Part shown: positions 5,792 through 62,117 of the stretch, one piece after another
Numbering within the stretch: the stretch's first letter is position 1
Layout: the number at the start of each line of letters is the position of its first letter
Origin: Desulfomonilia bacterium
Lineage (GTDB): Bacteria > Desulfobacterota > Desulfomonilia > UBA1062
DNA: 64,000 bases
Assembly (NCBI GenBank): GCA_050014195.1
Contig: JBEKDT010000017.1
Span: forward strand, 34,038 to 98,037
Reading direction: 5' to 3'
The notes under the pieces: generated by a model
The model's database searches: none
Seen by the model: the letters and a program-made list of their open reading frames with translations, nothing else
Told to the model about the DNA's origin: nothing
Position numbers and translations under genes: made by a program

Positions 5792-7087
5792 ATGACAAAC
5801 ATTACAGCATCAGATCGAGACGAATATACTATTTGGTTTTATCTGTTAATATTGTACTTGGTGTTCGATTATGGAAGGATTCATGATACGTTACATCTCG
5901 GATTCGCAAGGCCCTTGCTGATACTTATTCTGATATTCATTGTAATGATCATACAGAGTGGCCGGTTGTTTGATCTAAAAAATAAACAGGTAAAGTTGCT
6001 ATGGATGTTTATCCTGCTTACCGCCCTGTATGTCCCTTTTGCACGGAACAATTTTTTTGCATACGAAACCACAAAAACCATGTTTCTCTACATGACGTTC
6101 GTAATCTCAACCATCATCTGCATAAACTCCATCGAACGCTTGAAGAAGATGATGTTTTTCTGTGTATTAATTATGGCATATATCTCGATCTATGCCATAA
6201 CCCACAATGGGCATGGGCCCGGAAACTACTTTCTGGATGAGAACGATCTGTCCCTGTATATCAACATATGGATCCCTTTTTGTTATTTCCTATTTTTTGC
6301 TGAACAGAACAAGACTAAAAAGATACTCTACGCCGCATCAATGGCCCTGGGCCTGATGGCCATCGTAGTTTCATTCTCCCGGGGCGGATTTGTCGGGTTG
6401 ATTGCAGCATCTCTTGCTATATGGCTATTTAGTTATCGGAAGTTTATATCAATGATCATCATAGCCTTGATGTTTCTCCTGGTTTCTCTTTTCAGCAGCC
6501 ATTTGCCTTCGGATACATCATCTGTGCCAGTCAGTAGGCATCATGCCGGTCATACGTTTTGGGATGAAATGGCGACAATATCTGATACTGGCGAGTCAAC
6601 TAATAAAGAGAGAATTGAGTCCTGGAAATCTGCGTGGAACATGTTTCTGGCCCATCCACTTGGGGTTGGTGGTAACAACTTTCCTATGCGGTTTTCAGAG
6701 TACCAGACCAATTACTTCAAACGGGGCATGTGGGGACGGGAAGCCCATTCTTTATGGTTTACCCTGATTACGGAGCTTGGTATCGGGGGTATTATCATTT
6801 TTAGTTTGTTGCTCTATTACAATATCCGAGATATCTTCTTTTTGAAAAATATGGATTCTCAGGTGCAGAACCAGGACACAATCTATCTGAAACATGTCGG
6901 CCCCGCATTCATAGCCTCGCTGGCAGGGTTTTTTGCTTCAGCCACATTTCTCTCCGTGCTCTACTACGCACATTACTGGTACATGACAGGGTTCATTGTC
7001 GCTGCAGCCAATATTGCCAAGCAGATGGAGGCAAACGAGGGAGGCTATTCGACACAATACAAACCAATCTCGGGAATCGATCAATAA
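5792..7087 (+). CDS. O-antigen ligase / Wzy-like polymerase family membrane protein
   Basis: It is a multi-TM protein with 'SFSRGGFVGLIAASLAIWLF' and 'HSLWFTLITELGIGGIII', resembling the Wzy_C / O-antigen ligase domain. Confidence 0.6.
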   Translation: MTNITASDRDEYTIWFYLLILYLVFDYGRIHDTLHLGFARPLLILILIFIVMIIQSGRLFDLKNKQVKLLWMFILLTALYVPFARNNFFAYETTKTMFLYMTFVISTIICINSIERLKKMMFFCVLIMAYISIYAITHNGHGPGNYFLDENDLSLYINIWIPFCYFLFFAEQNKTKKILYAASMALGLMAIVVSFSRGGFVGLIAASLAIWLFSYRKFISMIIIALMFLLVSLFSSHLPSDTSSVPVSRHHAGHTFWDEMATISDTGESTNKERIESWKSAWNMFLAHPLGVGGNNFPMRFSEYQTNYFKRGMWGREAHSLWFTLITELGIGGIIIFSLLLYYNIRDIFFLKNMDSQVQNQDTIYLKHVGPAFIASLAGFFASATFLSVLYYAHYWYMTGFIVAAANIAKQMEANEGGYSTQYKPISGIDQ

Positions 7088-10255: not shown

Positions 10256-10471
10256 ATGACCAAGCGGAAAGATAGTACGGTAATTGAGGGAATTCATCCT
10301 GCGTGTTGTGGGCTTGATGTTCACAAGGAAAGCGTTTCTGCCTGCCTGCTGTATCCCGGAAGAAAAAGTGTTCAGGAAAGTGAGCTTCGATTGTTCGGAA
10401 CGTATCTCGATGATATGTATGAGGTGCATTTGGCTACATTCCATCTTTTTCATTCAGTGAAGCAAAGATGA
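10256..10471 (+). pseudogene. IS110-family transposase, N-terminal remnant (truncated)
   Basis: The 71-aa ORF 'MTKRKDSTVIEGIHPACCGLDVHKESVSACLL' matches the IS110 DEDD N-terminus (GIDVHK…) and is cut off after about 70 aa. Confidence 0.5.
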
Positions 10472-10779: not shown

Positions 10780-11919
10780 ATGAAGAAAGTCATGATTGTT
10801 TTTGGCACAAGACCGGAAGCAATAAAACTTTGCCCCTTGGTGATAGCTCTGAAAAGAATTAATGAGAATTTCAAAGTGATAACGTGTGTAACGGCCCAGC
10901 ATAGAGAGATGCTTGACCAAGTCCTTGGTCTCTTTCATATAAGCCCCGAGTTTGACCTCAACCTCATGAAGAGCAATCAGACTCTGTTCCAGATCACAGT
11001 GAGCGTTCTCACCCAACTCCATGAGATTCTTAGCAGGGAGCCTATAGACATGATGATTGTGCAGGGCGACACTACGACCACGTTTGCCGCAGCGCTCTGT
11101 GCATACTACCACAAGATATCCATCGGCCATGTAGAAGCTGGCCTCCGTACATGGAATAAGTATTCCCCATACCCAGAAGAGATGAACAGAAAACTCACGA
11201 CCGGGCTTGCAGATCTTCACTTTGCACCAACGAAAAATAATAGTGAGAATCTTCTTGCCGAAGGGGTCCCGGAGGAAAGGATTATTGTCACCGGCAATAC
11301 GGTCATTGACGCGCTTCTCTGGGTTAGGGAGAAGATACGCAACGAAAGGAAGGAATTCCAGGAACTGAATGGAATTGACTTCACGAAGCGAATTGTACTT
11401 GTGACAGGCCACAGGAGAGAGAGCTTCGGACAGGGTATTGTTAATATCTGCAATGCCCTTAAGGACATTGCTTTTAGAAACCAAGATATCGAAATAGTAT
11501 ACCCGGTTCACCTAAATCCAAATGTATGGGAGCCAGTGAATTCCATTCTATCCGGTATTGGTAATATAAAGCTGATTGAGCCGTTGGACTATGAGCCTTT
11601 TGTTCTTCTCATGGATAAGTCATATCTAATCATTTCGGATTCCGGTGGCATACAGGAGGAGGCACCATCACTAGGAAAGCCAGTGTTGGTGACACGCGAC
11701 AAGACTGAACGTCCAGAGGCTCTAGCTACAGGGGCTGTCAAACTTATAGGCACGTCCAGGGAAAGGATCGTTACACAGGCACAGCAGCTCCTCGACGATC
11801 CTGAGACATATAAGCGTATGTCTATTATTCAAAATCCATATGGTGATGGCTATGCATGTGAGAGGATCATTGGAGCTATAAGCAACTATTTCTCGTTGCA
11901 TAACGAATCATTATTATAG
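10780..11919 (+). CDS. wecB: UDP-N-acetylglucosamine 2-epimerase (non-hydrolysing)
   Basis: It has 'MKKVMIVFGTRPEAIKLCPLV' and 'SDSGGIQEEAPSLGKPVLVTRDKTERPEA', which are hallmark motifs. Confidence 0.85.
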   Translation: MKKVMIVFGTRPEAIKLCPLVIALKRINENFKVITCVTAQHREMLDQVLGLFHISPEFDLNLMKSNQTLFQITVSVLTQLHEILSREPIDMMIVQGDTTTTFAAALCAYYHKISIGHVEAGLRTWNKYSPYPEEMNRKLTTGLADLHFAPTKNNSENLLAEGVPEERIIVTGNTVIDALLWVREKIRNERKEFQELNGIDFTKRIVLVTGHRRESFGQGIVNICNALKDIAFRNQDIEIVYPVHLNPNVWEPVNSILSGIGNIKLIEPLDYEPFVLLMDKSYLIISDSGGIQEEAPSLGKPVLVTRDKTERPEALATGAVKLIGTSRERIVTQAQQLLDDPETYKRMSIIQNPYGDGYACERIIGAISNYFSLHNESLL

Positions 11920-11922
11920 CAA

Positions 11923-13029
11923 ATGAATGTACTCCATATAATATCGGGAGACCTATGGGCAGGGGCTGAGGTTCAAGCAAATTCACTTGTTCTTTCATTA
12001 GCAAAGATTGAGAATTTTAACTTGCATGTTATTACCTTTAATAAGGGTATACTTGCTTTAAAACTGCATAGAGAAGGCATACCAGTTACCATTTTTGATG
12101 AGAATAAGCATTCAATGATCGCCTTGATTTTAGGATGTTTACAGGTAATGAAGACCTTTCAACCTGATATTGTACATGTTCATGGATTCAAGGAGAATCT
12201 CTTGGGAGGAATTGCTGCTAGGCTTGTTCAAGACAGGGTTATGATACGAACCCATCATGGTAAGGGTATGATCGGTTCCACGCAAAAATATAACATGATT
12301 GAGCGCTTCAATGCTAACTTTCTAACAAATAAAATTATTGCAGTTTCTCATGATCTCAAGAGGTTCCTGCAGGAGCACGGGCTTCCTGCTCCAAAGATCA
12401 CGGTTATACATAATGGTATAGAAGTGCATACCTCTGTCAATGATAAGATAATTAAGAAACTATGTGTGGAGTTGGGAATACCTGATGATATGAAGATTAT
12501 AGGCACTGTGGGGAGACTTGTCCCCATAAAAGATCATAAGACTTTTCTGTTTGGCGCAAAATTGATTTTGGAGAGCGAACCCAATGTAAGATTTGTGATT
12601 GTTGGTGATGGACCTCTGATGGCTGAGCTTAAAAAACAGTCCTATGAACTCGATATAGCGACACATGTATGTTTCACAGGATTCAGGGAAGATACGGATA
12701 TCCTACTAAACATGTTTGATGTGTTCTGCCTTACATCAATTCATGAAGGAATTCCCATGGCTCTACTCGAGGCCATGAGCCTTGGAAAACCCATTGTGGC
12801 CACACGTGTCGGTGGAATAAGTGAAGTGATTGATGATAATGGCAGTGGATTGCTGATTGACTCTGAAAATCCCCAATCTTTCGCTGATGCATGCATCAAA
12901 GTCCTGCGAGATAAAAACCTTAGGGCATCCCTTTCCGAACGAGCCGTTTCAGTGGTGAAGGAAAAATTTACCTTGGATGTTACTGTAAGGTTAACTCAAG
13001 ATCTATACCGGAGGGTTGTACAATCATGA
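11923..13029 (+). CDS. Glycosyltransferase family 1 (GT4)
   Basis: It has 'MNVLHIISGDLWAGAEV' and 'EGIPMALLEAMSLGKPIVATRVGGISEVIDDNGSGLL'. Confidence 0.8.
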   Translation: MNVLHIISGDLWAGAEVQANSLVLSLAKIENFNLHVITFNKGILALKLHREGIPVTIFDENKHSMIALILGCLQVMKTFQPDIVHVHGFKENLLGGIAARLVQDRVMIRTHHGKGMIGSTQKYNMIERFNANFLTNKIIAVSHDLKRFLQEHGLPAPKITVIHNGIEVHTSVNDKIIKKLCVELGIPDDMKIIGTVGRLVPIKDHKTFLFGAKLILESEPNVRFVIVGDGPLMAELKKQSYELDIATHVCFTGFREDTDILLNMFDVFCLTSIHEGIPMALLEAMSLGKPIVATRVGGISEVIDDNGSGLLIDSENPQSFADACIKVLRDKNLRASLSERAVSVVKEKFTLDVTVRLTQDLYRRVVQS

Positions 13030-14222
13030 ACATCCTCTATATCTGGGATGCAGATTACCCTTGGGATGTCCGGGTGGAGAAGATCTGTTCAACCTTGGCT
13101 AGTCATGGTCATAAAGTTCATATTGCTGCAAGGAACCTTAAAAGACTCCCGGAATATGAGATCAGTTCTGATCTGATGATCCATCGACTCAAAGCATGGC
13201 AAAATGCGAGAATGAATTATTTACTCTCGTTCCCTGCTTTTTTTAACCCAGTCTGGAGCCATTTCCTTGACAGGATCATCGGAGACAATGGTATTGATAT
13301 TATCATCGTCCGCGACCTCCCCATGGCCATCGCAGGAATTTGGGCAGGAAAGCGCCACAACATTCCTGTTATCTTTGATATGGCAGAAGATTATGTTGCC
13401 ATGGTATGGGATATCTGGAGAGCAAGGAAGTTTCAAGCGCTGAACTTTCTGGTAAGGAACCCCTATCTTGCAAAGCTCGTTGAAAATTACGTCTTCAAGA
13501 AGTCTGATCAAATTCTTGTTGTTGTAGAGGAGGCAAGAGACCTTGTCATTGCAAGAGGCGTGATGCCTGAAAAGGTGACAATAGTTGGCAACACTCCTGT
13601 CTTGGATGATTTCATTCAGGCCGATGTTGTTTCAAATGAAATTATTGATCAGATACGAAGCAGGCACTCTGTCATTTATACCGGAGGCATCCAAATGGGC
13701 AGGGGAATACAGGTGGTCTTCGATGCCATACCCGAGATTGTAAAGGAGATAGCCGATTTCCTTTTTGTGATTGTGGGAGATGGATATGCAACACCAATAC
13801 TTAAAGAGATGATGAGGGAAAAAAAAGTTCAGGACCATGTACTTTGGGTTGGCTGGGTTGACCATAAGTTTATTTTTGATTACATCAGAGCCTGCAAGGC
13901 AGGTATAATTCCTCATTTTACATCTGATCATGTGCACACAACAATCCCGAACAAAATATTTGACTACATGGGATTAGGTTTACCGGTGGTTTCCTCTGAT
14001 GCTGTACCTATGAAGAGGATTCTGGAACAGGAGATATGCGGTGTTACTTTTAAGAGTGGTGACCCAATAGAATTAGGAAGAGCTATCGTAAGTACATATA
14101 TGTCTGATGTTAACTATGGGATGAATGGAATCAGTGCAGTAAAAGAAAAATATAATTGGGCGGAAGATAAAGATAGATTACTTAAGGTTATATCAAGCAT
14201 AAAAAAGAAGAAGTTCAATTGA
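13026..14222 (+). CDS. Glycosyltransferase family 1 (GT4-like)
   Basis: The C-terminus 'TIPNKIFDYMGLGLPVVSSD…GVTFKSGDP' is GT1-like. It overlaps the upstream gene by ATGA. Confidence 0.7.
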   Translation: MNILYIWDADYPWDVRVEKICSTLASHGHKVHIAARNLKRLPEYEISSDLMIHRLKAWQNARMNYLLSFPAFFNPVWSHFLDRIIGDNGIDIIIVRDLPMAIAGIWAGKRHNIPVIFDMAEDYVAMVWDIWRARKFQALNFLVRNPYLAKLVENYVFKKSDQILVVVEEARDLVIARGVMPEKVTIVGNTPVLDDFIQADVVSNEIIDQIRSRHSVIYTGGIQMGRGIQVVFDAIPEIVKEIADFLFVIVGDGYATPILKEMMREKKVQDHVLWVGWVDHKFIFDYIRACKAGIIPHFTSDHVHTTIPNKIFDYMGLGLPVVSSDAVPMKRILEQEICGVTFKSGDPIELGRAIVSTYMSDVNYGMNGISAVKEKYNWAEDKDRLLKVISSIKKKKFN

Positions 14223-14299
14223 TAAAATCATGACATCAATAAGACGAGGTTTCTATTGTTGATATTCAAGTTACTTTATTATCATGAAACAAATGAGGA

Positions 14300-14423
14300 T
14301 TTGAAACCTTTGCACAACCCGGATAATTTGAGGTTTTTAAAAAATAATGCCATAAAGACTGTCAGAGAACAGTATTCAATTGATACAACCATTAGTAAAC
14401 TCATCTCACTGTATGGTGACTGA
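14300..14423 (+). pseudogene. Remnant of a GT1 glycosyltransferase C-terminus (gene scar)
   Basis: The non-initiated frame '…DLKPLHNPDNLRFLKNNAIKTVREQYSIDTTISKLISLYGD*' resembles a typical GT1 C-terminal tail. It lacks a start codon and an upstream domain. Confidence 0.35.
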
Positions 14424-14617
14424 ATATTGGCTTATCCAGATATACAGTATGACTATGTTGATACCATTCCGATATTATTACGCAAAGGCCTTATGTGACA
14501 TTAAGCCGAATGATGGACTGGAAAGGGTCGTTAAGCGAATGAAATGATCAAGATTCAGAAATGGGAATTCGAAGTACAAAAGATTCTCGCTAATTGACCG
14601 GGAAAGTCGAAGAACCA

Positions 14618-16138
14618 ATGCGTGTTAAGAATTGGGAAATGAAAGAGCAATCAGATACCGTGGAGGTATCCGCAGATGTAGACGGCTTTCGCCTGTGGTT
14701 CCGATCACCAAAGTCCTATCCAGTTTCAAGAACAGGCGATCCCTTCCTGGCATCCGCGCTTCTTCCGGCGATGCGCCAAGGAGAGAAGCTTGAGTTTGAC
14801 CCACGCCTGCCCGTTTCCCCGAAGTTACTGAGAAATGCTTTTGTGCTCCAGGAAATTTTCCATTCCTGGAATCCTGAAGAATTGAGAATGATCCCCGTCA
14901 GCGCTAAGACATCACCTGCCGAGCCGCTTAATACTGGCGCCATGTCCTTCTTCTCGGGAGGCGTGGACAGCATGTACACTTTTCTGAAGCGTAAGAATGA
15001 GCTCAGCCATGTGGTTAATATATATGGATTCGATTTCTTCTTCAACAGCGGGGATGCCTCGACATTCTCGGTTGCTGACCTCAAAGACTTGGCGCATTTC
15101 GCATGGAAGCTGATGTTACCGGTTGGCCCGGTGTCTGCCTACTTAAAGGGCATGCTCTCGAAAACAACGCTGCAAACTCTATCAAATTACGTAGATTCGG
15201 GCTCAGATCCAGGAGCAGTGGAAACAAGTCTGGTAGAGGATCTTAACAAGATCATCTCCGGGCAGTTGATCTACGACAGAAAGCGCTTTGCGGGTGTCAA
15301 CTTGCGGCCGCAAACAAGACATTTTATGTCGCGGGACCTGAAGGGAGAGGACCTGAGCGGCCTGAACCGGCTTCTTCTGGAGGACGCTTATCCACGTGAA
15401 ATATCGGGAAAGTATAATGGAGCCTACCAGACGGCCATCGAGCGCAACACCTGCTTCGTTCAAAGCTTTGGGAAGACCCTCGTCCCTGTCGAGAATAATC
15501 ATTATGCTTTTGGATATCGCTACAATCTGAGTAGAAATTTAACACAGGGAAGTGCCTTGGCCAGTGTCGCGCTTCTCCTTGGGTTTCCTCAAGTCTATGT
15601 GCCATCTGCTTATACTTACAGGCAGCTATGTCCTTTGGGTTCGCACCCGCTGACGGATGGGCTATGGTCGAATGAATGTGTAGAAATCATACACGATGGC
15701 TGCGAGGCGGGACGGACAGATAAGCTCAAGATGATATGCGAATGCGAATCAGCTCTTACGAATTTAAGGGTCTGCTTCGATAATGTGAATATCAATTGTG
15801 GAAAGTGTGCAAAGTGTTTGCGCACAATGATGCCCCTAAAATTGCTTCGTGCCTCTGCCGCCCCTTTCCCAACTCTTCCTTCCCTCAAAGTAATTCGGAA
15901 AAGCCGTATCTCTGATGATATCGAAACGAGCTTCTTCAAGGAGACGGTCGACCTTGCTTTGCAGACAGGAGACCAAGAAATGCGGTATGCTTTATGCGCA
16001 TGTATGAAAAGGAATGAACTATTAAAGCTCCTAATAGATCTCGATAAGGTGCTCCTGGGGGGATTCATCAAGCGTGCATATCGAAGAATAGTGCCTGGTA
16101 TAGGGATCCGTCGAATTGATACTACCCCGAGAGATTGA
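14618..16138 (+). CDS. PP-loop ATP pyrophosphatase superfamily protein with a C-terminal Cys cluster; putative amidotransferase/amide ligase
   Basis: It has an SGGxDS motif in 'SFFSGGVDSMYTF' and a Cys cluster 'CFDNVNINCGKCAKC' (C-x7-C-x2-C-x2-C), reminiscent of QueC/ExsB-type zinc sites. There is no glutaminase domain. The track start at 14594 is a TTG; the first ATG is at 14618. The gene is GC-richer than its neighbours. Confidence 0.5.
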   Translation: MRVKNWEMKEQSDTVEVSADVDGFRLWFRSPKSYPVSRTGDPFLASALLPAMRQGEKLEFDPRLPVSPKLLRNAFVLQEIFHSWNPEELRMIPVSAKTSPAEPLNTGAMSFFSGGVDSMYTFLKRKNELSHVVNIYGFDFFFNSGDASTFSVADLKDLAHFAWKLMLPVGPVSAYLKGMLSKTTLQTLSNYVDSGSDPGAVETSLVEDLNKIISGQLIYDRKRFAGVNLRPQTRHFMSRDLKGEDLSGLNRLLLEDAYPREISGKYNGAYQTAIERNTCFVQSFGKTLVPVENNHYAFGYRYNLSRNLTQGSALASVALLLGFPQVYVPSAYTYRQLCPLGSHPLTDGLWSNECVEIIHDGCEAGRTDKLKMICECESALTNLRVCFDNVNINCGKCAKCLRTMMPLKLLRASAAPFPTLPSLKVIRKSRISDDIETSFFKETVDLALQTGDQEMRYALCACMKRNELLKLLIDLDKVLLGGFIKRAYRRIVPGIGIRRIDTTPRD

Positions 16139-16641
16139 GCAGGATTTTCAGCTGGTATGTTGTTGGCTGCATGGCCTCTGCTTTGCAAAATTGCATGAAT
16201 GAAGGGGGAGTCCTTCCTGTGATCAATTTGGACTTGATCGCTATGAGCCTACCACCACTTGAGGCCCTTGAACAATTCCCATTGTGGCAAAACTTGGTTA
16301 GGAGCTGATATTCGACAATAATGGCATTTAATCCAATGATATCATTGCATTAAAATTGATATATTTTCTCTATCTTGAAATTCATGGGGAGTGCTGGAAT
16401 GGGATATAAGGAAACTTTTGCACAGCTCACCGGTGATTAGACGCAGATTTGGAGCTGATAATCTGTGATAACAGCAATTATCCAATTGATATTATTAATG
16501 ATAACTGGTAGTCTTACTTATCATTTAATCTCGTTTAGGGTTAATTCCCACGCTGCTTGCTGCGAAGGCATATTCTTTATAAAAAAATTTGAACCCTATA
16601 GCTTGCTGCAGGGTAGTTCAAAATGAAACAATTGAGGACTT

Positions 16642-18396
16642 ATGAAAAAATTTACATTTAATCTGTTTCACGGGCAGAAGCCCTCCAATAATCAGGAATT
16701 TATAAAATGTTTCCCTACCTGGTGGTACTATACTGAAGGAATACCTGTAAAAGCAGGTGACTTAAATGGAAATGCTAAGTGGCTTCTGGCGGGTCGGCTC
16801 TTAAATGATCAGGATCCGAGTAAAATTATAGATTATTTTTATAGGCGACGTGATTACGAGTATCTATATCAAATTGATGGCCAGTTCATTTTTATTCTGT
16901 ATTTTGAGAATGATGGAAGCGTTGAGATATATCGCGACCGTATTGGTACATTCCCAATTGCATATGCACAAGGTCGAAATGGTATTGCCATATCTGTAGA
17001 TATTAATGACGTAAAGGATATGACCGGTATAGTTCCTTCACCATCAACCGGTATCTTTGAACAATGGCCATTATATCGCAAAACATTTGCACCGGTTTCA
17101 CCATTTTATGAAATTCATACCCTTGCCCCGGAGCATTCTTTACGTATCACAGGCTCTTCTTTTAATGAGATCAGTCACCCCATGTGTTTCCCTACTGAAG
17201 AAGAATATCCTGATATGAATATATCGAGCCAGGTCTTAGGTGACGTACTTTCACGATCGATCCAGAAGAGAATTGAGATTTCAAAGAGAATGGGGGTCTT
17301 TCTCAGCGGGGGGAATGATTCCAGTTTGATTGTGGCAATTGTTAGAAAGTTCTATTTAAAAAAACTGAGAACACTCTTTGTCACATTTGAAGATAACCCT
17401 AGGGATTATGGTCATCATGCCCAGGAGGTAGCCGACAGGTTCGGCACCGATCATTCTTCTGTCACATTGAGCCCGAGAGACTATGTTGGAGTCTGGGCAG
17501 ACACGATTAAAGTGCTGCAAACGCCTGTTCCTATGCCGTGTCATATAGGGATTCATCATGCCTTAAAAATGCTTTCAGGTGATGTTGATTTGATGATTGA
17601 TGGCGATGGTGCTGATACGGTTTTTGGAAGCTCAATATGGCCAGAGATGATATTTTTATCACGTATTAATAGATTTATCCCAACATACCTGAAAGATGGT
17701 ATCGGAAGATTGGCACATTCAATGTCTTGTAATACGACCATAGTGCGAATAGCGGAGATGATTAAGACGGCCCTTAATTCTTCTCTCTATGAATACCCCC
17801 ATGTAAATGCAGCAATGATTTCTGAAAGTGAATTCAATCAGATCTTTCTAAGAGGTGACTGGCAACAGGCAGTTCATTTCAGACAAGGCTTCGCAAGGGG
17901 TGATTTCTATAAAGGATTGTTTTCTTATCTTATGTTGCATGGTATACCGGAAGATCTCGCCACCACTGTCCGCTTGGGTTTGTCGCAGGGCATTTTCTTT
18001 GCGTATCCTTTCTTGGATTATGGTTTATTGCAGGCATCAATGCGATTGCCCAATAAACATCGGTATCATTACCGCATCCGTAAGGCGCCTTTGAAAAAAT
18101 ATTCTTTGAATTATTTCGACAAGGATTTCGTATATAAACCAAAGGAAGGTTTCGGTGTTCCTCTTGCTTCATGGTTCACGAAGAAAGAATTTGAGCCTTT
18201 CCTGATGCTGCCTCTCGAAGAGCGCAGCTTAAAACGTGGGTGGTGGAAGGAACTCGAGTTAAAGAGGATAATAGATTTGCACCGGAGGGGAGAGGGCAAT
18301 GACAGTTCAGCAGAGGCTATACCATGGATTGTAATCAATTTGGAATTATGGGCTCGTATATGTATCGATGGGGATTCTCCGAGTCAGTATAAATAA
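16642..18396 (+). CDS. Asparagine synthetase-like PP-loop protein lacking the N-terminal Cys nucleophile
   Basis: It has a PP-loop 'GVFLSGGNDSSLIVAI'. An AsnB-like N-domain remnant, 'IDGQFIFILYF…YRDRIGTFPIAY', is present, but the protein begins MKKFTF with no Cys2. There is an in-frame stop 3 codons upstream. Confidence 0.7.
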   Translation: MKKFTFNLFHGQKPSNNQEFIKCFPTWWYYTEGIPVKAGDLNGNAKWLLAGRLLNDQDPSKIIDYFYRRRDYEYLYQIDGQFIFILYFENDGSVEIYRDRIGTFPIAYAQGRNGIAISVDINDVKDMTGIVPSPSTGIFEQWPLYRKTFAPVSPFYEIHTLAPEHSLRITGSSFNEISHPMCFPTEEEYPDMNISSQVLGDVLSRSIQKRIEISKRMGVFLSGGNDSSLIVAIVRKFYLKKLRTLFVTFEDNPRDYGHHAQEVADRFGTDHSSVTLSPRDYVGVWADTIKVLQTPVPMPCHIGIHHALKMLSGDVDLMIDGDGADTVFGSSIWPEMIFLSRINRFIPTYLKDGIGRLAHSMSCNTTIVRIAEMIKTALNSSLYEYPHVNAAMISESEFNQIFLRGDWQQAVHFRQGFARGDFYKGLFSYLMLHGIPEDLATTVRLGLSQGIFFAYPFLDYGLLQASMRLPNKHRYHYRIRKAPLKKYSLNYFDKDFVYKPKEGFGVPLASWFTKKEFEPFLMLPLEERSLKRGWWKELELKRIIDLHRRGEGNDSSAEAIPWIVINLELWARICIDGDSPSQYK

Positions 18397-18463
18397 AATA
18401 TGGAAGATAATTATAAAAAATCTTAAGTAGATACAAGGACTGCTTCTAGAAAAGGTAGATAAA

Positions 18464-19600
18464 ATGAAGATTGGTATTATACGAACTTCGCATAAGGAAA
18501 ATGAACGTCGTGTCCCGATATATCCGGAACACTTACCATGGATTGACCTTGAGTTGAGGAAACATCTTGTTTTCGAGAGTAATTATGGGCAGGATTATGG
18601 CTTTTCAGATGAATATTTTATTCGACATCAATCAAGTTTGTCTGACCGCCAGGGACTATTTAAGACATGTGATATGTTAATTCTACCGAAACCTATTCTT
18701 CAAGATTATGAACAGATGAAGGAATTTCAGACAATATGGGGATGGCATCATTGTGTCCAGGGTAGGAAAATTTCCCAGGCAGCAATTGATCGAAAATTGA
18801 CTTTGATTGCCTGGGAGGCCATGCACCAATGGAGTAAAGGCGGAGAACGCCTTATGCACTCTTTTTATAAAAACAATGAAATAGCTGGTTACTCTGCTGT
18901 TCTACACGTCTTGGAGTTGCTGGGTGTTGATGGGCACTATGGACCGAGGAAAAATGTTATTATTATTGGATACGGTTCAGTCAGTCGCGGAGCAATCTAT
19001 GCTCTTCAGGGAAGAGGATACAATAATATTCATGTCTATACCCGACGCCCAGTACATTTAGTAGCAGATCAGAATCCCGATGTGTATTATCATCATCTAG
19101 AAGTTGCACCAAATGGTCAGATGTTTGGGGTCCATAATGATAGATCAAGACGTCCTTTCGTTGAAGAACTTGCTGAAGCAGATATTATCTGCAATGGTAT
19201 TCTTCAGGATACAGATAATCCTCTGATATTTGTAGATGAAAAAAATATTGATCTTCTAAAACCTCGGTCTGTAATTATTGATATCAGTTGCGATGAGGGT
19301 ATGGGCTTTTCTTTTGCACGTCCAACGACATTTAAAGACCCCATTTTTTCAGTAGGACAAAATATCACTTACTATTCCGTTGACCATATTCCATCTTATC
19401 TTTGGAATGCGGCCTCAAGGGAAATTTCAAGAGTTGTGCTATCTTTTCTGCCGATTTTAGCCGGGGGAATTCAATCCTGGTGTGAATGTGAGACTGTTAA
19501 AAAAGCCATTGAGATACGTAATGGCGTTATACAAAACCCCAAAATACTGTCATTTCAGAATCGACAAGAGGAATATCCACACCTAGAAGTAATTACATAA
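18464..19600 (+). CDS. N5-(1-carboxyethyl)-L-ornithine synthase homologue (AlaDH/PNT superfamily, opine-forming NAD(P)H reductase)
   Basis: Segments recalled from memory match Lactococcus CeoA in order: 'MKIGIIRTSHKENERRVPIYPEHL', 'IWGWHHCVQG', the Rossmann motif 'NVIIIGYGSVSRGAIYA', 'ADIICNGI', and 'IIDISCDEGMGFSF…FKDPIF'. Confidence 0.6.
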   Translation: MKIGIIRTSHKENERRVPIYPEHLPWIDLELRKHLVFESNYGQDYGFSDEYFIRHQSSLSDRQGLFKTCDMLILPKPILQDYEQMKEFQTIWGWHHCVQGRKISQAAIDRKLTLIAWEAMHQWSKGGERLMHSFYKNNEIAGYSAVLHVLELLGVDGHYGPRKNVIIIGYGSVSRGAIYALQGRGYNNIHVYTRRPVHLVADQNPDVYYHHLEVAPNGQMFGVHNDRSRRPFVEELAEADIICNGILQDTDNPLIFVDEKNIDLLKPRSVIIDISCDEGMGFSFARPTTFKDPIFSVGQNITYYSVDHIPSYLWNAASREISRVVLSFLPILAGGIQSWCECETVKKAIEIRNGVIQNPKILSFQNRQEEYPHLEVIT

Positions 19601-19711
19601 TAATGTGTTAACATCCCCAATAATAACCATATTTGATGCTATTGGGTGTCTCGCTGAAGACCATTCTTTTGCATCATACAAAATAGGGAATTAAGCAGTA
19701 GCCAAAGATAT

Positions 19712-21049
19712 ATGCATCCATTCATAGCCAAACATCTCATTTATTATCCAATCCAGCTCCTTAGGGGCCAGATAGTCAGAAGATATAAACACCGGGTTAT
19801 CTCCTGCCAAATTGCACCTACCAAAGTGATTTATGAAATCCGTGATAAGAAGATATGTGACCTGATCAAGTATGCCTATAACTATATTCCCTACTATCGT
19901 GAAAAATTTGATGAGCGAGATATTAATCCAGACCGGATCAAAGGATTTAATGATCTGTCATGTCTTCCAATACTGTCTAAGCTTGATATTTTGACTAATG
20001 AACATAATCTCATTTCACACAATTGTAGCCAAAAACTGTATACCAGAAAAACCAGCGGATCGACCGGAATGACCCTCCACTTTCAGAAAGAGGCCAGGGC
20101 ACTGGCGCTCAATGATGCCGTCATGTACCGCTGCTATGCATGGTATGGTATCGATATCGGGGATAAACAAGTTAGGTTCTGGGGGGTGCCGGTAGACCCC
20201 GCTCTGAGACGAAGGGAAAAGGTCAAAGACTTCATCCTAAACAGGATCAGGATCTCGGCTTTCGATATCTCCGAGCAATCCTGTCTGGCGCAGTACCAGA
20301 GAATAAAGCGGTTTAGGCCGGCATATTTTTACGGTTATACTACCGCCATCTACGGTTTCTGCTCCTTTGCACAGAAGCTCGGCCTTGACCTTAATACACT
20401 TGGTCTGAGGGCCGTCATCTGCACTGCTGAGAAGATGTACCCGCATCATCAGGATCTTTTCGATAAGGTGTTCAAATGCCCTGTGGTTGATGAATACGGT
20501 TCCAGCGAGAACGGCATCATCGCCTTCCAGTGTAAAGAGGGGAGCATGCATGTGATGGCGGATCATCTGGCCGTTGAATTTGTAGATGAAGCCGGGCAGA
20601 GGGTTAAACCCGGCGAGCTTGGAAGGATTGTTATAACGGATCTCAATGGATACGCCATGCCCCTTATACGGTATGAGATAGGCGATATGGGAAGGTATAC
20701 GGAACAAGCATGTTCATGTGGAGTAACTTTGCCGGTGATGGACATCATTGAAGGGCGCAAAGAGGATTTCATCCGGACCCGGGAAGGAAAGCTCATCCAT
20801 GCGGCCTACCTCTGTTATACCCTGAAGGATGACGCCGTCCATGAATTCAAAATGTATCAGAAGGATCTCAACAGGTTTCTTGTCCAGATAGTCAAATCGA
20901 ATAAGTTTAATGCAGACTCCCAGAAGAAGCTCGAACATAAACTCAGGACAGCCCTGGGGGATAGCGTAGTTTTTGAGTTCCAGTTTCTGGAAAGGATTCC
21001 GAGAGAGGCATCAGGCAAGCTCAGATATTTCATCTCTGAAATCCGGTAA
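19712..21049 (+). CDS. Phenylacetate-CoA ligase-like adenylate-forming enzyme (CapK/PaaK family)
   Basis: It has the AMP-binding P-loop 'TRKTSGSTGMTLHF'. Its size and context match CapK-type capsule-locus ligases. Confidence 0.65.
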   Translation: MHPFIAKHLIYYPIQLLRGQIVRRYKHRVISCQIAPTKVIYEIRDKKICDLIKYAYNYIPYYREKFDERDINPDRIKGFNDLSCLPILSKLDILTNEHNLISHNCSQKLYTRKTSGSTGMTLHFQKEARALALNDAVMYRCYAWYGIDIGDKQVRFWGVPVDPALRRREKVKDFILNRIRISAFDISEQSCLAQYQRIKRFRPAYFYGYTTAIYGFCSFAQKLGLDLNTLGLRAVICTAEKMYPHHQDLFDKVFKCPVVDEYGSSENGIIAFQCKEGSMHVMADHLAVEFVDEAGQRVKPGELGRIVITDLNGYAMPLIRYEIGDMGRYTEQACSCGVTLPVMDIIEGRKEDFIRTREGKLIHAAYLCYTLKDDAVHEFKMYQKDLNRFLVQIVKSNKFNADSQKKLEHKLRTALGDSVVFEFQFLERIPREASGKLRYFISEIR

Positions 21050-21165: not shown

Positions 21166-21435
21166 ATGGAATTGTATGCCGGATTGGATCTGCATTCACA
21201 GTACACCTACATTGGAGTGCTTGAGAAAGGGAGTATGAGGAAGGTGTTTCAGATGAGGGTATCGAATGAACTGCAGAGGATTATCTCTGCACTGGAGCCA
21301 TTCAGAAATGAGCTCCAAGGTATTGCGATAGAGAGTACTTTCAATTGTTACTGGCTTGTGGATGGGCTTATGGGTAGAGGGCAAAAGGGGAAAATCGGGC
21401 AGCAGATACAGCTCGAATTCATGGTGTTTGAATGA
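21166..21435 (+). pseudogene. IS110-family transposase, N-terminal remnant (truncated)
   Basis: The sequence 'MELYAGLDLHSQYTYIGVL…IAIESTFNCYWLVDGL' matches the IS110 DEDD domain and terminates after 89 aa. Its sequence differs from the 10256 remnant. Confidence 0.6.
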
Positions 21436-21651
21436 AGAATGAACCTAAATCACCAGATCCGATCCTGACCTGGAAATATGCAAAGGTCTCGTATGGAGTG
21501 TGGGAATACCACCGGAAAGAGCAGATAATGGAGGAAATAGGCAGTAAACTAAGCTTTATTTCTTGAGATTTTCATGAAAAAAGCACCAATCAGTTTCCTC
21601 CGATTCCTTTCTTGTCCTTGTGCAAAGGTCTCTGTATGGAGAACATCTCAA

Positions 21652-22746
21652 ATGGACAGTGAAATTTATGATAGATATTCAATCGAAGTGGATAGCATAG
21701 GAGCAGAAGAATGGAACACTGTGCTCAGAGTATTCTCTGATGCGTCTATATTTCAAACATATGAGTATGGGGTCGAAAATTGGGGAAAGAACCATCTTAG
21801 TCATATAGTATTAAGAAAGGATAATGATATAGTGGCTGCTTCCCAAGTCTGGGTGGTAGAACTCCCGATTTTAAAATGTGGTTTTGCCCATATTCCGTGG
21901 GGCCCCATGTGGAAATGCAAAAATCGAGAAAGAGATGTACAGACTGTTAGAATGATGCTTAGAGCGCTAAGAGATGAGTATGTGGAAAAGAGAGGACTTC
22001 TGCTGAGGTTAAGGGGTTACTCGGTATCGGGTACGGATGAAGGCAATGAAGTTATTCAACAGTTGAGCGAAGAAGGATTTACGTTCCAAAAGAGGGAAGC
22101 CGCATATCGTACGTATCGAATTAATCTGACCAAGAGTTTGGAAGAACTGCGTACTAAGTTTAAAGGAAACTGGCGGAGAGATTTAATCAAGGCAGAGAGA
22201 CAAGATCTAGAGATAGAAATAGGGAATAGTGTTTCCATGTTAGTGGTATTTTCAGAGATATATAAAGATATGGTTAGGAGAAAAGGCTTTAAAGAGTATG
22301 TTGCAGACATGAACAAATACATCGAAATGCAGAGAAGGTATCGGGATGATTTGAAGATGAATATCTTTTTATGTAAGCATGAGGGAACTTATGTAGCTGG
22401 CGCTGTTGTTCCGGCAATAGGTGATACGGGGATGTATTTATTAGGGGCAACGAGTACTATATGTTTTGAAAAGAAATTACTTGCTTCTCACCTGATCCAG
22501 TGGCGAGTTCTCAGTTGCTTGAAATCAAATGGATTCCGATACTATGACTTACGTGGAGGGATCGATGGTGACATGGAGGGAGTTAGGCATTTCAAAAGCG
22601 GTCTTTCTGGGGAGGAGATTCACTACATAGGTTCGTATGAGTGTTCTCATAGAGTGTTAAGTGAGGTTGCCGTACGTACTGGTGAACATATTCAAAGAAT
22701 GAAAGCCGGTCTACAAAATTTTGTGTGGAAGTTAGCAAGTAAATAA
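21652..22746 (+). CDS. FemAB-family / GNAT-fold acyl(aminoacyl)transferase-like protein
   Basis: Its size and the motif 'RYYDLRGG…HFKSGLSG' resemble the FemAB/BioF2-like acetyltransferase domain. The track start at 21574 gives a 26-aa hydrophobic or Cys-rich leader 'MKKAPISFLRFLSCPCAKV'. The ATG at 21652 (MDSEIY…) is the more likely start. Either start is possible. Confidence 0.5.
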   Translation: MDSEIYDRYSIEVDSIGAEEWNTVLRVFSDASIFQTYEYGVENWGKNHLSHIVLRKDNDIVAASQVWVVELPILKCGFAHIPWGPMWKCKNRERDVQTVRMMLRALRDEYVEKRGLLLRLRGYSVSGTDEGNEVIQQLSEEGFTFQKREAAYRTYRINLTKSLEELRTKFKGNWRRDLIKAERQDLEIEIGNSVSMLVVFSEIYKDMVRRKGFKEYVADMNKYIEMQRRYRDDLKMNIFLCKHEGTYVAGAVVPAIGDTGMYLLGATSTICFEKKLLASHLIQWRVLSCLKSNGFRYYDLRGGIDGDMEGVRHFKSGLSGEEIHYIGSYECSHRVLSEVAVRTGEHIQRMKAGLQNFVWKLASK

Positions 22747-22837: not shown

Positions 22838-24541
22838 ATGAAAGGGCGTATTACATTCGGTTACCCCGATGATACGAAAGATGTTATTGTTCGCCTTCAG
22901 GGAGAGATATGGTCGATCCAAGGACAGTCAACTCAGGGCATGGATATTCTTGAGCGGATTAAAATTGAATACTTGAATAAAGGAGTTGCTCTATTTGAAA
23001 AATTAGATGGATCATTTTCTCTTGTCATCGAAGATCATCAAAAAATGAAACTCTTTCTTGTACGAGACAAGCTCGGCACTATTCCTCTGTATCACGCAAA
23101 AAAAAGATGTACATTTACCTGGGGCAATCTCATAAGTGATATCCTTTCTGACCTGGAAATTGAAACGTCAGCCAATCATGATGTAATTCATGAATACTTA
23201 GTGTTTCGTTATGTTAGCGGGAGGAATACTCTTTTTCAAGGAATTCATGAGCTTTTACCGGCACATTATCTAGAGGTTGACCTTAGAAAAGGAGAAGTAG
23301 AGGAAAAGCAGTATTGGGATATTCCTTATCCCTGTAAATCTGAAATGATTAAAGATAATGATGAAACCTGTGTCGATAAAATAGAAGAGATTCTAATACG
23401 TATTCTCAAAAGAACTTTAAGTAAGAATTGTCGCTATGGAATCATGTTGAGCGGTGGGCTTGATTCAAGCCTGATAGCAGCTCTTGCGTCAAAACATGTT
23501 AATCATGGTTTCCCAACATTCTTTATAGGATTTACAGATTATGAGAGTGATCGCTCTCATGATGCCCAAATGGTAGCAGAAACATATCATATGATCCATT
23601 CAAATTTCTATGTTAACTCAAAACAGTATGCTGAAGGTCTTATAGAAGCAATCAGAACCAACGAGGAACCACTTAACCATCCCGGTCATGTAGGAAGGGT
23701 TCTTTTCGATTCTCATACAAAAGATAAAGTTGATGCTCTCCTTATGGGAGAAGGAGTCGATACAATGTTTTGTGGGGCAAAGGCTTACCCACTTCTTAAA
23801 TATGGTTATATGTTCAATCCATTCAGGAAATTAACTAGGAGAATATTTTCATTGATAGACCCAGAAATAATTCCCGACTCACATAAGCGGTACTACACAA
23901 AGATAAGAGATGCATTTGTCATGAATGCTGATGAGTATATGATCCGAACTTTTGCAGCGGCAGAATTTCAAGAGGCAAGTGATCTATTGGAGCTTGAGGC
24001 TGATATGAGCTATCTTAACTATTATAAAAGCTTTATATCTGAATGTACGAGAGAAAATGTTCTTGAGAAATACCTTATGCTCAATCAGCACACATTTATA
24101 GTTGAAGTACTGAATTCTGATGCAAAGTATAGAGAATTAAACCAAATAATTAATTATTATCCATTCCTGGATGTCGAATTACTATCGTTTTCAAATCACA
24201 TTCCATTTAAAATACGGACCAAGGGGTTCACGGGAAAATATCTCATCAAGAAACTCGCTGAGAGATATTTTTCCAAGCATTTCATATATCAGCAAAAAGA
24301 GGGCTTTGGTGTGCCTTTGAAGACCTACTTCCAGGATCCAGAGAGTATGGGGAGATATTTTGACCTCCTTTTGGAGAAGAGGACAATGGAAAGAGGAATT
24401 TTTAAAAGGAGAGAACTCTCTAATTTTGTTGAAGGATTTCGGAAAGGCGAAATGCCTTCTGAGAGTTATGAGTCTTTGCTCTGGACTGCAATTAACCTTG
24501 AGTTATGGTACAGGATTTTTATCGATAGGAATGGTGTATGA
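22838..24541 (+). CDS. Asparagine synthetase-like PP-loop protein lacking the N-terminal Cys nucleophile
   Basis: It has a PP-loop 'IMLSGGLDSSLIAALA'. An AsnB-like N-domain, 'DGSFSLVIEDHQKMKLFLVRDKLGTIPLYH', is present, but the protein begins MKGRITFGY and an in-frame TAA lies 3 codons upstream. Confidence 0.7.
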   Translation: MKGRITFGYPDDTKDVIVRLQGEIWSIQGQSTQGMDILERIKIEYLNKGVALFEKLDGSFSLVIEDHQKMKLFLVRDKLGTIPLYHAKKRCTFTWGNLISDILSDLEIETSANHDVIHEYLVFRYVSGRNTLFQGIHELLPAHYLEVDLRKGEVEEKQYWDIPYPCKSEMIKDNDETCVDKIEEILIRILKRTLSKNCRYGIMLSGGLDSSLIAALASKHVNHGFPTFFIGFTDYESDRSHDAQMVAETYHMIHSNFYVNSKQYAEGLIEAIRTNEEPLNHPGHVGRVLFDSHTKDKVDALLMGEGVDTMFCGAKAYPLLKYGYMFNPFRKLTRRIFSLIDPEIIPDSHKRYYTKIRDAFVMNADEYMIRTFAAAEFQEASDLLELEADMSYLNYYKSFISECTRENVLEKYLMLNQHTFIVEVLNSDAKYRELNQIINYYPFLDVELLSFSNHIPFKIRTKGFTGKYLIKKLAERYFSKHFIYQQKEGFGVPLKTYFQDPESMGRYFDLLLEKRTMERGIFKRRELSNFVEGFRKGEMPSESYESLLWTAINLELWYRIFIDRNGV

Positions 24542-26168: not shown

Positions 26169-26801
26169 ATGAAAAAAACTTTCATGACAATCGCAGCACT
26201 TTTTATTGTGCTCGGATTCACAGCATCAGTAGGAGCAACTACAATTCAAATTGTCGGCAGCTATTCGACTCTGGATTCGCTGACCTTCACTCTTCTTGGC
26301 CACACCTACCACGACCAGTTGGTGGGTGAGTTTAATCTCCTTATCGATAGCAAGCCGGAAACAGGATATTGTGTTGACTTGGGTCATCTTTTATATGTTC
26401 CCAGCGGACCCTTTAATGTAAACCTTACTAGCGATCTGACCGATGAGGGCGATGTCCCCAACGGGTATGAAGCAGCATGGTTGTGGAACTATGTGGGTGA
26501 TGCTCTAGATAAGGACCATAGAGCAGCGTTGCAGTTGGCAATATGGGATGTTGTGTTTGGGCCGGTTACCGGTATCTCCGAGCCGGCAGTCGCCGCAGAA
26601 TACAATGCTTACTTAGCAGATCTTGCATTATATAGCTCATTTAATGGTGCAGGGTATGCTATTGCTGAACTAGGTGACCTACGCACACCATACCAGGATC
26701 TGCTGGTAAAAACCCCCGCCCCCGTTCCTGAGCCCATGACACTGTTGCTTCTCGGGTCAGGTCTTCTCGGACTGGCAGGATTCAGAAGGAAGATGAAATA
26801 G
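26169..26801 (+). CDS. PEP-CTERM sorting-domain protein (exosortase cargo)
   Basis: It has a signal peptide 'MKKTFMTIAALFIVLGFTASVGA'. The C-terminus 'PVPEPMTLLLLGSGLLGLAGFRRKMK' is the PEP motif, then a TM helix, then a basic tail. Confidence 0.85.
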   Translation: MKKTFMTIAALFIVLGFTASVGATTIQIVGSYSTLDSLTFTLLGHTYHDQLVGEFNLLIDSKPETGYCVDLGHLLYVPSGPFNVNLTSDLTDEGDVPNGYEAAWLWNYVGDALDKDHRAALQLAIWDVVFGPVTGISEPAVAAEYNAYLADLALYSSFNGAGYAIAELGDLRTPYQDLLVKTPAPVPEPMTLLLLGSGLLGLAGFRRKMK

Positions 26802-54879: not shown

Positions 54880-54938
54880 GCGCCTTTGGTAAAGGTGGGG
54901 TATGCCGGGAAGAGTATACCCTTGAATGCAAACCGGTA

Positions 54939-56615: not shown

Positions 56616-56811
56616 GTCACAAGGCAGCTTATATGTGCCATCTGTTATGCCGTATGACTATTGCTTATATAAGTATTTGGAGGGCTGAAAGGGAGAGGGG
56701 CCGGGTTTTTTAGATTTATAATTCCGAACGGCCTTAGGCCTTCTCGGCAGGAACTACTGACTGAGGTACTTTCCTCCGACGACTCGTGCCGGCTAGCATC
56801 ATCAACCATGA

Positions 56812-58137: not shown

Positions 58138-58140
58138 GAT

Positions 58141-58854: not shown

Positions 58855-58874
58855 GCGGTTTTCTTCCATCCCTT

Positions 58875-60038: not shown

Positions 60039-60043
60039 AATGA

Positions 60044-61042: not shown

Positions 61043-61072
61043 ATGACATCCCTCATGGGAGAAACCTGCACA

Positions 61073-61996: not shown

Positions 61997-62117
61997 CTCT
62001 CCCTTTGAACCGTTTACTAATATCGAAGCACTCTGCCTTCACGTATGACTTTTTCCCATCACTTGCAAGTTTTTCCCTATCCTTAAATTTTTAGGAGGGC
62101 TGTCAGGGGCCCTTTCA

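Follow-up and report, generated by a model that had tools for sequence, protein, structure and literature searches.

We have analyzed a window of 64,000 nucleotides from a Desulfomonilia bacterium (assembly GCA_050014195.1, contig JBEKDT010000017.1, positions 34,038 to 98,037 of the forward strand); positions are counted from its first letter. The gene of interest lies at 14618-16138 on the + strand, as do the neighbouring genes listed in this paragraph. It is an intact gene for a 506 amino acid protein, which appears to be a long-form member of an uncharacterised family of QueC-like PP-loop ATP pyrophosphatases. Upstream of it, an intact GT4 glycosyltransferase gene (13026-14222) now abuts the remnant of another one: a start-less C-terminal tail of a GT4-type (GT-B) gene at 14310-14423 with its own stop codon at 14421-14423. 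The junction zone (14223-14309), from the stop of the intact GT4 gene to the first residue of the remnant which still aligns with GT4 proteins, has a GC content of 0.32-0.34. Downstream there is a spacer of 503 bp (16139-16641), AT-rich, non-coding and unusually long. It is followed by the genes for an AsnB-like adenylating enzyme (16642-18396), an alanine dehydrogenase-like (AlaDH-like) protein (18464-19600) and a CapK/PaaK-type adenylate-forming ligase (19712-21049). The open reading frame (ORF) of the PP-loop gene, which ends at 16138, could start at TTG 14594, with a frame of 514 amino acids, or at ATG 14618; homologues begin at ATG, so we have adopted the 506 amino acid protein. The gene is intact and functional-looking, as judged from its sequence. 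The arrangement is not an assembly artefact, since positions 14150-14700 are 100% identical in five independent metagenome assemblies.

The N-terminal domain of the protein (14618-14932, amino acids 1-105), with three beta strands and then helices, is family-specific and conserved in both long and short forms; no likeness to other proteins was detected. The PP-loop, SGGVDS (14954-14971, amino acids 113-118), is placed between a predicted strand (108-111) and a predicted helix (116-124). A helical insert of about 120 amino acids (15050-15412, amino acids about 145-265) lies between core strand 2 and helix 2. Only the long-form clade has it: it corresponds to a gap in the alignment with the 382-388 amino acid paralogues, and to helices 158-257 in the predicted model. 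The tetracysteine cluster, CFDNVNINCGKCAKC (15773-15817), has the pattern C386-x7-C394-x2-C397-x2-C400. It is followed by a C-terminal helical extension (15845-16135, amino acids about 410-506), which QueC does not have and which is distantly related to Pfam DUF6395, under the threshold of that family. The initial annotation had described the combination of SGGVDS with a QueC-like C-x7-C-x2-C-x2-C cluster, a size about twice that of QueC and an N-terminal domain of some 110 amino acids, all of which was borne out.

These features are conserved. Among 58 diverse members of the family, the positions of the PP-loop are S in 57, G in 52, G in 58, a variable residue, D in 58 and S in 45. The four cysteines, K399, R366 and D347 are invariant in all 58 members, and K369 is found in 57. 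The cysteine cluster is probably a zinc site, and K369 is the predicted phosphate-binding lysine shared with QueC. The AlphaFold2 models of the window protein and of a short-form paralogue are confident, with predicted local distance difference test (pLDDT) scores of 90.8 and 89.6, respectively. They present the same succession of elements: strand, PP-loop and helix, four more beta-alpha units, the cysteine cluster and a helical tail.

The profile of the 58 members was compared by hhalign with a QueC profile which includes E. coli-type sequences and nine phage QueCs. The alignment has 175 collinear columns, which reach from the PP-loop to the cysteine cluster and correspond to QueC positions 5-218, with an E-value of 7.8e-5 and a probability of 61.6% (the usual bar is 90%). 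It places K369 on K165, P339 on P132, and the four family cysteines (C386, C394, C397, C400) one-to-one on C188, C197, C200 and C203 of QueC. An earlier comparison with a low-diversity enterobacterial QueC alignment had found the cysteine cluster only. With an alignment of AsnB-like proteins, the PP-loop is aligned with a probability of 30.6%, under the same bar, and an E-value of 5e-4. Individual members also have sub-threshold matches to QueC, in 9 of the 58 cases.

Fold comparisons point in the same direction. When the short-form model, without the insert, is submitted to Foldseek, PP-loop enzymes are overrepresented among the top matches, though all E-values are above 0.01. These enzymes include YcfA, TrmU/MnmA (probabilities of 0.89-0.97; 0.95 for MnmA and 0.97 for TrmU), TtuA, ThiI, GMP synthetase and beta-lactam synthetase. 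For QueC (PDB 2pg3) the probability is 0.92, over 214 columns. Its template modelling (TM) score, normalised to QueC, is 0.50, the best target-normalised value among the PP-loop enzymes in the list. The long-form model only gives noise.

The resemblance to QueC (PF06508 / TIGR00364) is thus found in several features: SGGxDS at the first strand-helix junction, a collinear core, the aligned lysine, and four cysteines in equivalent places, C-x7-C-x2-C-x2-C in the family and C-x8-C-x2-C-x2-C in QueC. On the other hand, the window protein has no PF06508 or TIGR00364 match, and it adds an N-terminal domain of about 105 amino acids, an insert of about 120 and a C-terminal tail of about 100. Its context is also different: it is found in a polysaccharide setting with GT4, AsnB-like, AlaDH-like and ligase genes, without queD, queE, folE or tgt as neighbours. 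We consider it very probable that the protein belongs to an uncharacterised family of QueC-like PP-loop enzymes. Its core, on the basis of these alignments, is that of a divergent QueC-like PP-loop ATP pyrophosphatase of the adenine nucleotide alpha hydrolase (AANH) superfamily, not that of a QueC.

The family is large and widespread. A first search gave at least 596 close matches. At 50% identity there are 11,606 clusters with E-values of 1e-3 or lower, 2,457 of them with 1e-30 or lower. Members are found in 378 loci of GTDB species representatives from many phyla; the cultured carriers among them include Pseudomonas, Williamsia, Mycobacterium, Methylobacillus, Motiliproteus and Parahaliea. 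A typical member has about 380-400 amino acids; the window protein comes from a narrow clade of long forms. The closest members are spread across Desulfobacterota, Ignavibacteriota, Aminicenantes, Verrucomicrobia and Planctomycetes, with 58-72% identity. Almost all members carry the public name "hypothetical protein"; a few have been labelled automatically as "QueC" or "adenine nucleotide alpha hydrolase" (AANH family). The window protein has no match in Pfam or NCBIfam even at permissive cut-offs (E<=10 and E<=1, respectively). This includes the models for QueC and for the N-acetyl-sugar amidotransferases (TIGR03573), with which the initial annotation had proposed to compare the protein. Against PDB sequences, the window protein alone had one match, at chance level (E 1.7), and the profile of the family had none. 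Literature searches found no paper on this family. The superfamily itself is well known; the novelty lies in a large, widespread and unnamed family which, in this clade, has a constant dehydrogenase partner.

Tandem paralogues are found in 23 of 79 family loci; a second, distant paralogue was not found inside the window. Four proteins (P0126, P0127, P0179 and P0232) are multi-copy or fused forms. P0232, with 1259 amino acids, is a family member fused to a polysaccharide pyruvyl transferase domain, and P0126, with 1150 amino acids, has six matched stretches.

The dehydrogenase partner is the AlaDH-like protein, a full-length, divergent homologue of alanine dehydrogenase. We have compared the seven loci of the closest clade (at least 66% identity), which include the window. 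The order in the window is PP-loop, AsnB-like, AlaDH-like and CapK-like genes, and locus L099 has this same order (PP-loop, AsnB-like, AlaDH-like). In L098 the PP-loop gene is directly followed by the AlaDH-like and TupA-like genes. In L009 an AsnB-like gene precedes these three. An additional gene is found in other loci: a distant paralogue between the AlaDH-like and TupA-like genes in L007, and an unknown gene between the PP-loop and AlaDH-like genes in L100, which also ends with a TupA-like gene. L097 has an AlaDH fragment and an octopine dehydrogenase-like gene between the PP-loop and TupA-like genes. The AlaDH-like gene is therefore present at most two genes downstream of the PP-loop gene in all seven loci, and a TupA-like ATP-grasp ligase comes next in five of them; in the window the CapK/PaaK-type ligase takes its place. 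The upstream gene is different in each locus, so that a conserved module begins with the PP-loop gene at its 5' edge. It continues with none or one gene, the AlaDH-like gene and then usually an amide ligase, and lies inside an exopolysaccharide (EPS) cluster. The gene is thus not an isolated insert, contrary to what the initial annotation implied, and the window order is also found in one NCBI metagenome-assembled genome (MAG).

TupA-like ATP-grasp domains have been shown to turn glucuronic acid of the C. jejuni capsule into an amide at its C6 carboxylate (PMC11800379). The TupA-like amidoligase (the C-terminal domain of C. jejuni Cj1438; PMC11800379) resembles the proposed role of the PP-loop protein in being an ATP-dependent tailoring enzyme, which amidates a uronic-acid carboxylate. 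However, its fold is unrelated and its chemistry goes through an acyl-phosphate, not an acyl-adenylate: it is a neighbour, not a homologue.

In the closest clade, six of the seven loci have polysaccharide-type neighbours; the contig of the remaining one, L097, has only 5.9 kb and shows the module alone. The window also holds genes for UDP-glucose dehydrogenase and UDP-GlcNAc 2-epimerase. In the wider family, at least 35 of 69 loci have genes for GT2 or GT4 glycosyltransferases, Wzx, Wzt, pyruvyl transferase, ATP-grasp, carbamoyltransferase or lipopolysaccharide (LPS) kinase at most five genes away. Three cultured organisms, Pseudomonas sp. C11 (L060), P. neustonica (L075) and P. kuykendallii (L077), have family copies amid WaaP-like kinase, carbamoyltransferase and GT2/GT4 genes, in LPS-core-like clusters. 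The first two have two short-form copies each; the L077 copy comes from the locus search and was missed in ORF calling. A different arrangement is found in two Aminicenantes MAGs (L011 and L013): M4 peptidase, outer-membrane beta-barrel, long form, DUF362, short form, and class III aminotransferase or Kelch protein. A third Aminicenantes MAG, L017, apparently shares it, judging from gene sizes.

The glycosyltransferase remnant upstream of the PP-loop gene has been studied with a GT4 profile of 390 positions, obtained from 30 GT4 proteins of related loci. Its frame is bounded by stops at 14220-14225 and 14421-14423, which gives a 65 amino acid peptide (14226-14420). Residues 29-63 of this peptide (14310-14414) align to profile positions 349-383 with 9.3 bits, a score which none of 5000 shuffles reach (the best one has 6.6 bits). 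The aligned part is the C-terminal helix region of GT4 proteins, in register with the stop codon. The remnant ranks first among 644 stop-to-stop peptides of 40-120 amino acids from the six frames of the window, the runner-up having 2.1 bits. A pairwise comparison also aligns it to residues 332-362 of the 368 amino acid GT4 protein encoded at 11923-13029 (35% identity, E 6e-4). The same frame on the 5' side (14226-14309) does not align to the GT4 profile, and 14310-14423 has no Pfam match. With only some 35 aligning codons, no start codon and without both Rossmann-like domains, the remnant is not a functional gene. It has no coding sequence annotation in the NCBI MAG, as we infer from the protein accessions, which run from 330 (GT4) to 333 (AlaDH-like) and leave only two for the PP-loop and AsnB-like genes. 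Its GC content is 0.315, like that of the AT-rich cluster and unlike that of the PP-loop gene.

We have not found a full-length counterpart of this remnant. A search of 5.8 billion proteins gave only the same ORF of 55 amino acids, a scan of metagenome contigs gave none, and the upstream genes and spacers of six relatives have no similarity to it, so the full-length gene that the initial annotation proposed to look for in relatives did not appear. A blastx comparison of the spacers with 926 proteins of related loci found nothing significant. Nevertheless, the alignments indicate that the glycosyltransferase tail described by the initial annotation is a real scar of an older rearrangement, with the break upstream of the tail. 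The PP-loop gene comes after this tail, which is the 3' end of a glycosyltransferase gene. The missing part, about 330 codons, would therefore have been further upstream, where the intact GT4 gene now ends (14222). The break which removed this 5' part of a third GT4 gene thus lies at 14223 to about 14309, with the scar between it and the PP-loop gene.

The base composition of the window is not homogeneous, and three zones may be distinguished: a polysaccharide cluster (1-29 kb, GC content 0.33-0.50), a housekeeping stretch (29-55 kb, 0.42-0.56) and a last zone (55-64 kb, 0.58-0.65). The PP-loop gene has a GC content of 0.489, with 0.529 at third codon positions (GC3). The corresponding values are 0.415 and 0.426 for the upstream GT4 gene, and 0.410 and 0.385 for the downstream AsnB-like gene. 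The PP-loop gene has the highest GC content of the 15 genes between 3.4 and 25.7 kb, and the GC profile (400 bp) climbs and drops at the borders of its ORF. The calculation therefore agrees with the initial annotation, which had judged the gene to be GC-richer than both sides. Codon usage also differs. We have used a leave-one-out log-likelihood ratio of synonymous codons, which compares a backbone model with a cluster model: the PP-loop gene has a ratio of -0.023, the upstream GT4 gene -0.125, and the two downstream genes -0.226 and -0.324, while backbone genes have +0.151 ± 0.092. Five other genes of the cluster also present an intermediate codon usage (796-1995, 2030-3472, 5792-7087, 10780-11919 and 19712-21049).

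The composition of the PP-loop gene matches that of the window backbone, where the genes for UDP-glucose dehydrogenase (Ugd), UvrB and CysS have GC contents of 0.507, 0.546 and 0.491: it is the AT-rich genes of the cluster that depart from the host. The cluster has a mosaic composition, and the PP-loop gene counts among its most backbone-like members. Since it is nearer to housekeeping composition than its neighbours are, GC content does not mark it as more foreign than they are, contrary to what the initial annotation had assumed. In the closest clade the GC content of the gene stays at 0.46-0.49 in all seven loci, with neighbours which span 0.33-0.54. This constancy, together with the presence of the clade in several phyla, fits lateral spread. 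A higher GC content as a trait of the whole family was considered and rejected, the mean difference from neighbours being -0.006 across 82 members in other genomes.

The overall interpretation that we favour, and consider reasonably probable, is an unnamed QueC-like PP-loop enzyme which heads an EPS module and adenylates its substrate for an amide-type decoration, next to a scar which comes from a break upstream of the glycosyltransferase tail. The more specific proposal that the protein itself makes an amide-type decoration of a polysaccharide is tentative, and we would give it slightly less than even weight; an ammonia- or amine-dependent amide synthetase is plausible. Adenylating chemistry is established for PP-loop ATP pyrophosphatases such as QueC, AsnB, NAD synthetase, NASAT and the tRNA thiolases. 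By analogy with them, ATP would bind to the PP-loop, the carboxyl or carbonyl oxygen of the substrate would be adenylated, and a nucleophile would then displace AMP. The genomic context suggests that the likeliest substrate would be a uronic-acid or side-chain carboxylate of a sugar precursor. The nucleophile would be ammonia or an amino compound, possibly tied to the AlaDH-like partner, with an amide-type decoration as the result. A role of this partner as ammonia donor or as builder of N-carboxyethyl groups is speculative.

Several points weigh against this interpretation. No Foldseek match reaches an E-value of 1e-3 with either model, and the hhalign probability is just 62%. The chemistry of QueC cannot be transferred to the family, because the substrate motifs YGQ, PGRN and YPDC of QueC are not kept there: the corresponding sites, invariant in the QueC alignment, are GFD, a variable S-R-N and GSHPLTD in the family. 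The module already contains other amide-forming enzymes (AsnB-like, CapK-like and TupA-like), which leaves the step of the PP-loop protein undefined. The codon usage of its gene departs from that of its module partners in the window, and the tests which we have run offer no explanation. Finally, the Aminicenantes loci and one Verrucomicrobia locus have no obvious polysaccharide context (DUF362, class III aminotransferase, M4 peptidase and a XylR-type regulator are found there), so the family may also be used outside polysaccharide pathways.

Different explanations may be proposed both for the origin of the locus and for the activity of the protein. According to the initial annotation, a foreign and GC-richer gene was inserted here in the place of most of a glycosyltransferase gene, of which the tail remained. 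The tail is real, the gene exceeds both flanking genes by 6-8 points in GC and 10-14 points in GC3, its own composition is maintained in the seven loci regardless of neighbours, in several phyla and at 58-72% identity, as lateral spread would have it, and the different upstream genes in every relative make the 5' edge of the module a recombination boundary. However, this proposal is contradicted by gene order: the tail is a 3' end placed upstream of the PP-loop gene, which does not occupy the deleted part. The low GC content of the tail is that of the cluster, the GC content of the gene matches that of housekeeping genes such as CysS and Ugd, and five more cluster genes have a similar codon usage. 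No relative has an upstream glycosyltransferase matching the tail, and repeats around the gene are at chance level; the best direct or inverted ones include a 17/19 match between 14284-14302 and 16623-16641. We consider such an insertion unlikely. Foreign origin survives in part, as lateral spread of the closest clade; the replacement of the glycosyltransferase is not supported, since the break lies away from the PP-loop gene.

As for the activity, the family might act on a small molecule or peptide, with EPS clusters as one of several uses. The Aminicenantes order (long form, DUF362, short form, class III aminotransferase, beside an M4 peptidase) and the Verrucomicrobia locus with its adjoining regulator would suit this idea, and an annotated polysaccharide gene is found at most five genes away in only about half of the loci. 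Nevertheless, six of the seven loci of the window's clade adjoin polysaccharide-type genes, a pyruvyl transferase fusion exists and the Pseudomonas copies are in LPS-core-like clusters, so we see this explanation as rather unlikely. The N-acetyl-sugar amidotransferases (NASAT: WbpG, WbuX, PseA, LpNASAT; TIGR03573; PDB 8WEX) offer another model, in which an N-acetyl carbonyl would be adenylated and ammonia added, giving an acetamidino sugar. They are PP-loop enzymes of polysaccharide clusters and share a common plan with our protein: a region of about 110-120 amino acids before the PP-loop and a zinc tetracysteine, which in NASAT has the pattern CxxC-Xn-[GN]xCxxC (PMC10607449). The short form has about 380 amino acids, and the family occurs in polysaccharide clusters. 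However, the window protein has no TIGR03573 match at E<=1, it lacks the first CxxC pair, its C-x7-C-x2-C-x2-C cluster is C-terminal to the core, and 8WEX is absent among the 50 Foldseek matches listed. HisH/HisF-like glutamine amidotransferase partners are a feature of wbuX-wbuY-wbuZ clusters. No ammonia-supplying partner of this type was found in the window, where ten genes between 8.3 and 22.7 kb were scanned for such domains: the partner here is AlaDH-like. A NASAT-like activity is accordingly quite unlikely. A sulfur-inserting enzyme of the TtuA, LarE, MnmA or YcfA type, whose cysteine cluster would hold Fe-S or sulfur and whose product would be thio-modified, appears even less likely. 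YcfA, TrmU/MnmA, TtuA and ThiI are among the top-ranked Foldseek neighbours and the four cysteines are invariant, but these match the four conserved cysteines of QueC and not a three-cysteine Fe-S site, every Foldseek E-value is above 0.01, and we noted no genes for sulfur carriers, cysteine desulfurases or rhodaneses beside it in the examined loci. Finally, a genuine but misplaced QueC, making preQ0, would explain the few automatic database names and the tetracysteine. The lack of QueC matches in Pfam and NCBIfam, the loss of the three substrate motifs and the absence of queD, queE and folE nearby refute it at the level of family membership, and its probability is minimal.

Other relatives have been considered. 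The AsnB-type sugar or EPS amidotransferases (WbpS-like; XrtA/PEP-CTERM TIGR03108) belong to the same superfamily, their PP-loop aligns with that of the family and they are found in the same type of cluster, with two such genes in the window. The PP-loop protein differs from them in its QueC-like cysteine cluster and in the absence of an N-terminal nucleophile (Ntn) glutaminase domain: it has no GATase or Asn_synthase match, and its N-terminal domain has no conserved cysteine. The initial annotation had suggested an unassigned amidotransferase family. The lack of matches in Pfam, NCBIfam and PDB agrees with the first part of this description; a strict glutamine-dependent amidotransferase is not supported, as no glutaminase domain was detected. 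Sub-threshold matches to Pfam DUF6395, over the cysteine cluster and the following helices, are found in 17 of the 58 members. However, the gathering score is never reached and the window protein itself has no match. The function of DUF6395 is not known, and a literature search found no mention of it. QatC, the QueC-like protein of the QatABCD defence system, was also tried and rejected: neither the long nor the short form has a PADLOC match at E<=1, and there are no QatA, QatB or QatD neighbours.

Some additional features of the cluster should be noted. The two AsnB-like proteins, encoded at 16642-18396 (MKKFTF...) and 22838-24541 (MKGRITF...), both on the + strand, have no cysteine at position 2; they are probably adenylating amide synthetases without glutaminase activity. 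Sub-threshold matches to TIGR03108 and TIGR03019, which are XrtA/PEP-CTERM-associated, are found in AsnB-like and FemAB-like genes (16642-18396, 21574-22746 and 22838-24541), and a PEP-CTERM sorting signal is found at the end of a 210 amino acid protein encoded at 26169-26801 (+). The cluster is possibly an EPS locus of the exosortase type. In another assembly of the same strain (L004, positions 11631-12961; JGI 3300025459), the CapK-like gene, which codes for 445 amino acids in the window, is split into ORFs of 173 and 204 amino acids, either by a disruption at strain level or by an assembly error.

Other observations concern rearrangements. Two short ORFs, at 10256-10471 (+) and 21166-21435 (+), have weak matches to the N-terminus of IS110 transposases, far under the cut-off (E 0.082, model positions 1-26 of 343, and E 0.011, positions 1-72 of 343). 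Both candidate fragments are in long non-coding gaps, and they flank a block of about 10.7 kb (10780-21049) in which the GT4 genes, the scar, and the PP-loop gene with its module are found. A 16/18 nt direct repeat, TTCAATTGATAAAATCAT at 14214-14231 (the stop of the intact GT4 gene) and TTCAATTGATACAACCAT at 14375-14392 (inside the scar), could be microhomology from the rearrangement or a chance match, repeats being at chance level in our scan. The spacer at 16139-16641 contains a 49 nt imperfect direct repeat (16298-16346 and 16448-16496, 71%) and a 17 nt palindrome at 16327-16354; no Rfam family was found in it, and no gene remnant in the comparison with the 926 proteins of related loci. Promoter and terminator scans around the PP-loop gene gave results no better than those of shuffled sequences. 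At the other end of the window there is a sharp step in composition (about 54900-64000): the genes from 54939 on, the first two of which code for a FAD-binding oxidoreductase and a class III aminotransferase, have GC contents of 0.58-0.65 and GC3 of 0.69-0.81, as compared to GC contents of 0.42-0.56 in the preceding 25 kb. Rearrangement of this kind, with a glycosyltransferase scar, possible insertion sequence (IS) fragments and mixed GC content, is ordinary for polysaccharide loci.

A further proposal, to which we give a low probability, is a hitherto undescribed kind of two-component system for sugar amidation, which would consist of the long-form PP-loop protein and the AlaDH-like protein as its constant neighbour. 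The AlaDH-like protein might free ammonia from L-alanine for the PP-loop synthetase, replacing the glutaminase partner of AsnB-type enzymes and NASAT. Alternatively, it might use pyruvate to make an opine-type N-(1-carboxyethyl) amino-acid side chain, which the PP-loop protein and the ligase would attach to a uronic acid. To our knowledge, the biosynthetic enzymes for amino-acid or opine amide decorations of bacterial polysaccharides are largely unassigned, and this system, if real, would assign genes to them.

In summary, the family extends from LPS-core-like clusters of Pseudomonas to anaerobes from peat soil. If our assignment holds, more than 10,000 clusters now annotated as "hypothetical protein" would acquire a testable role, adenylating tailoring of surface polysaccharides. 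The constant pairing with an AlaDH-like gene may point to the genes for amide-type decorations of O-antigens and exopolysaccharides.

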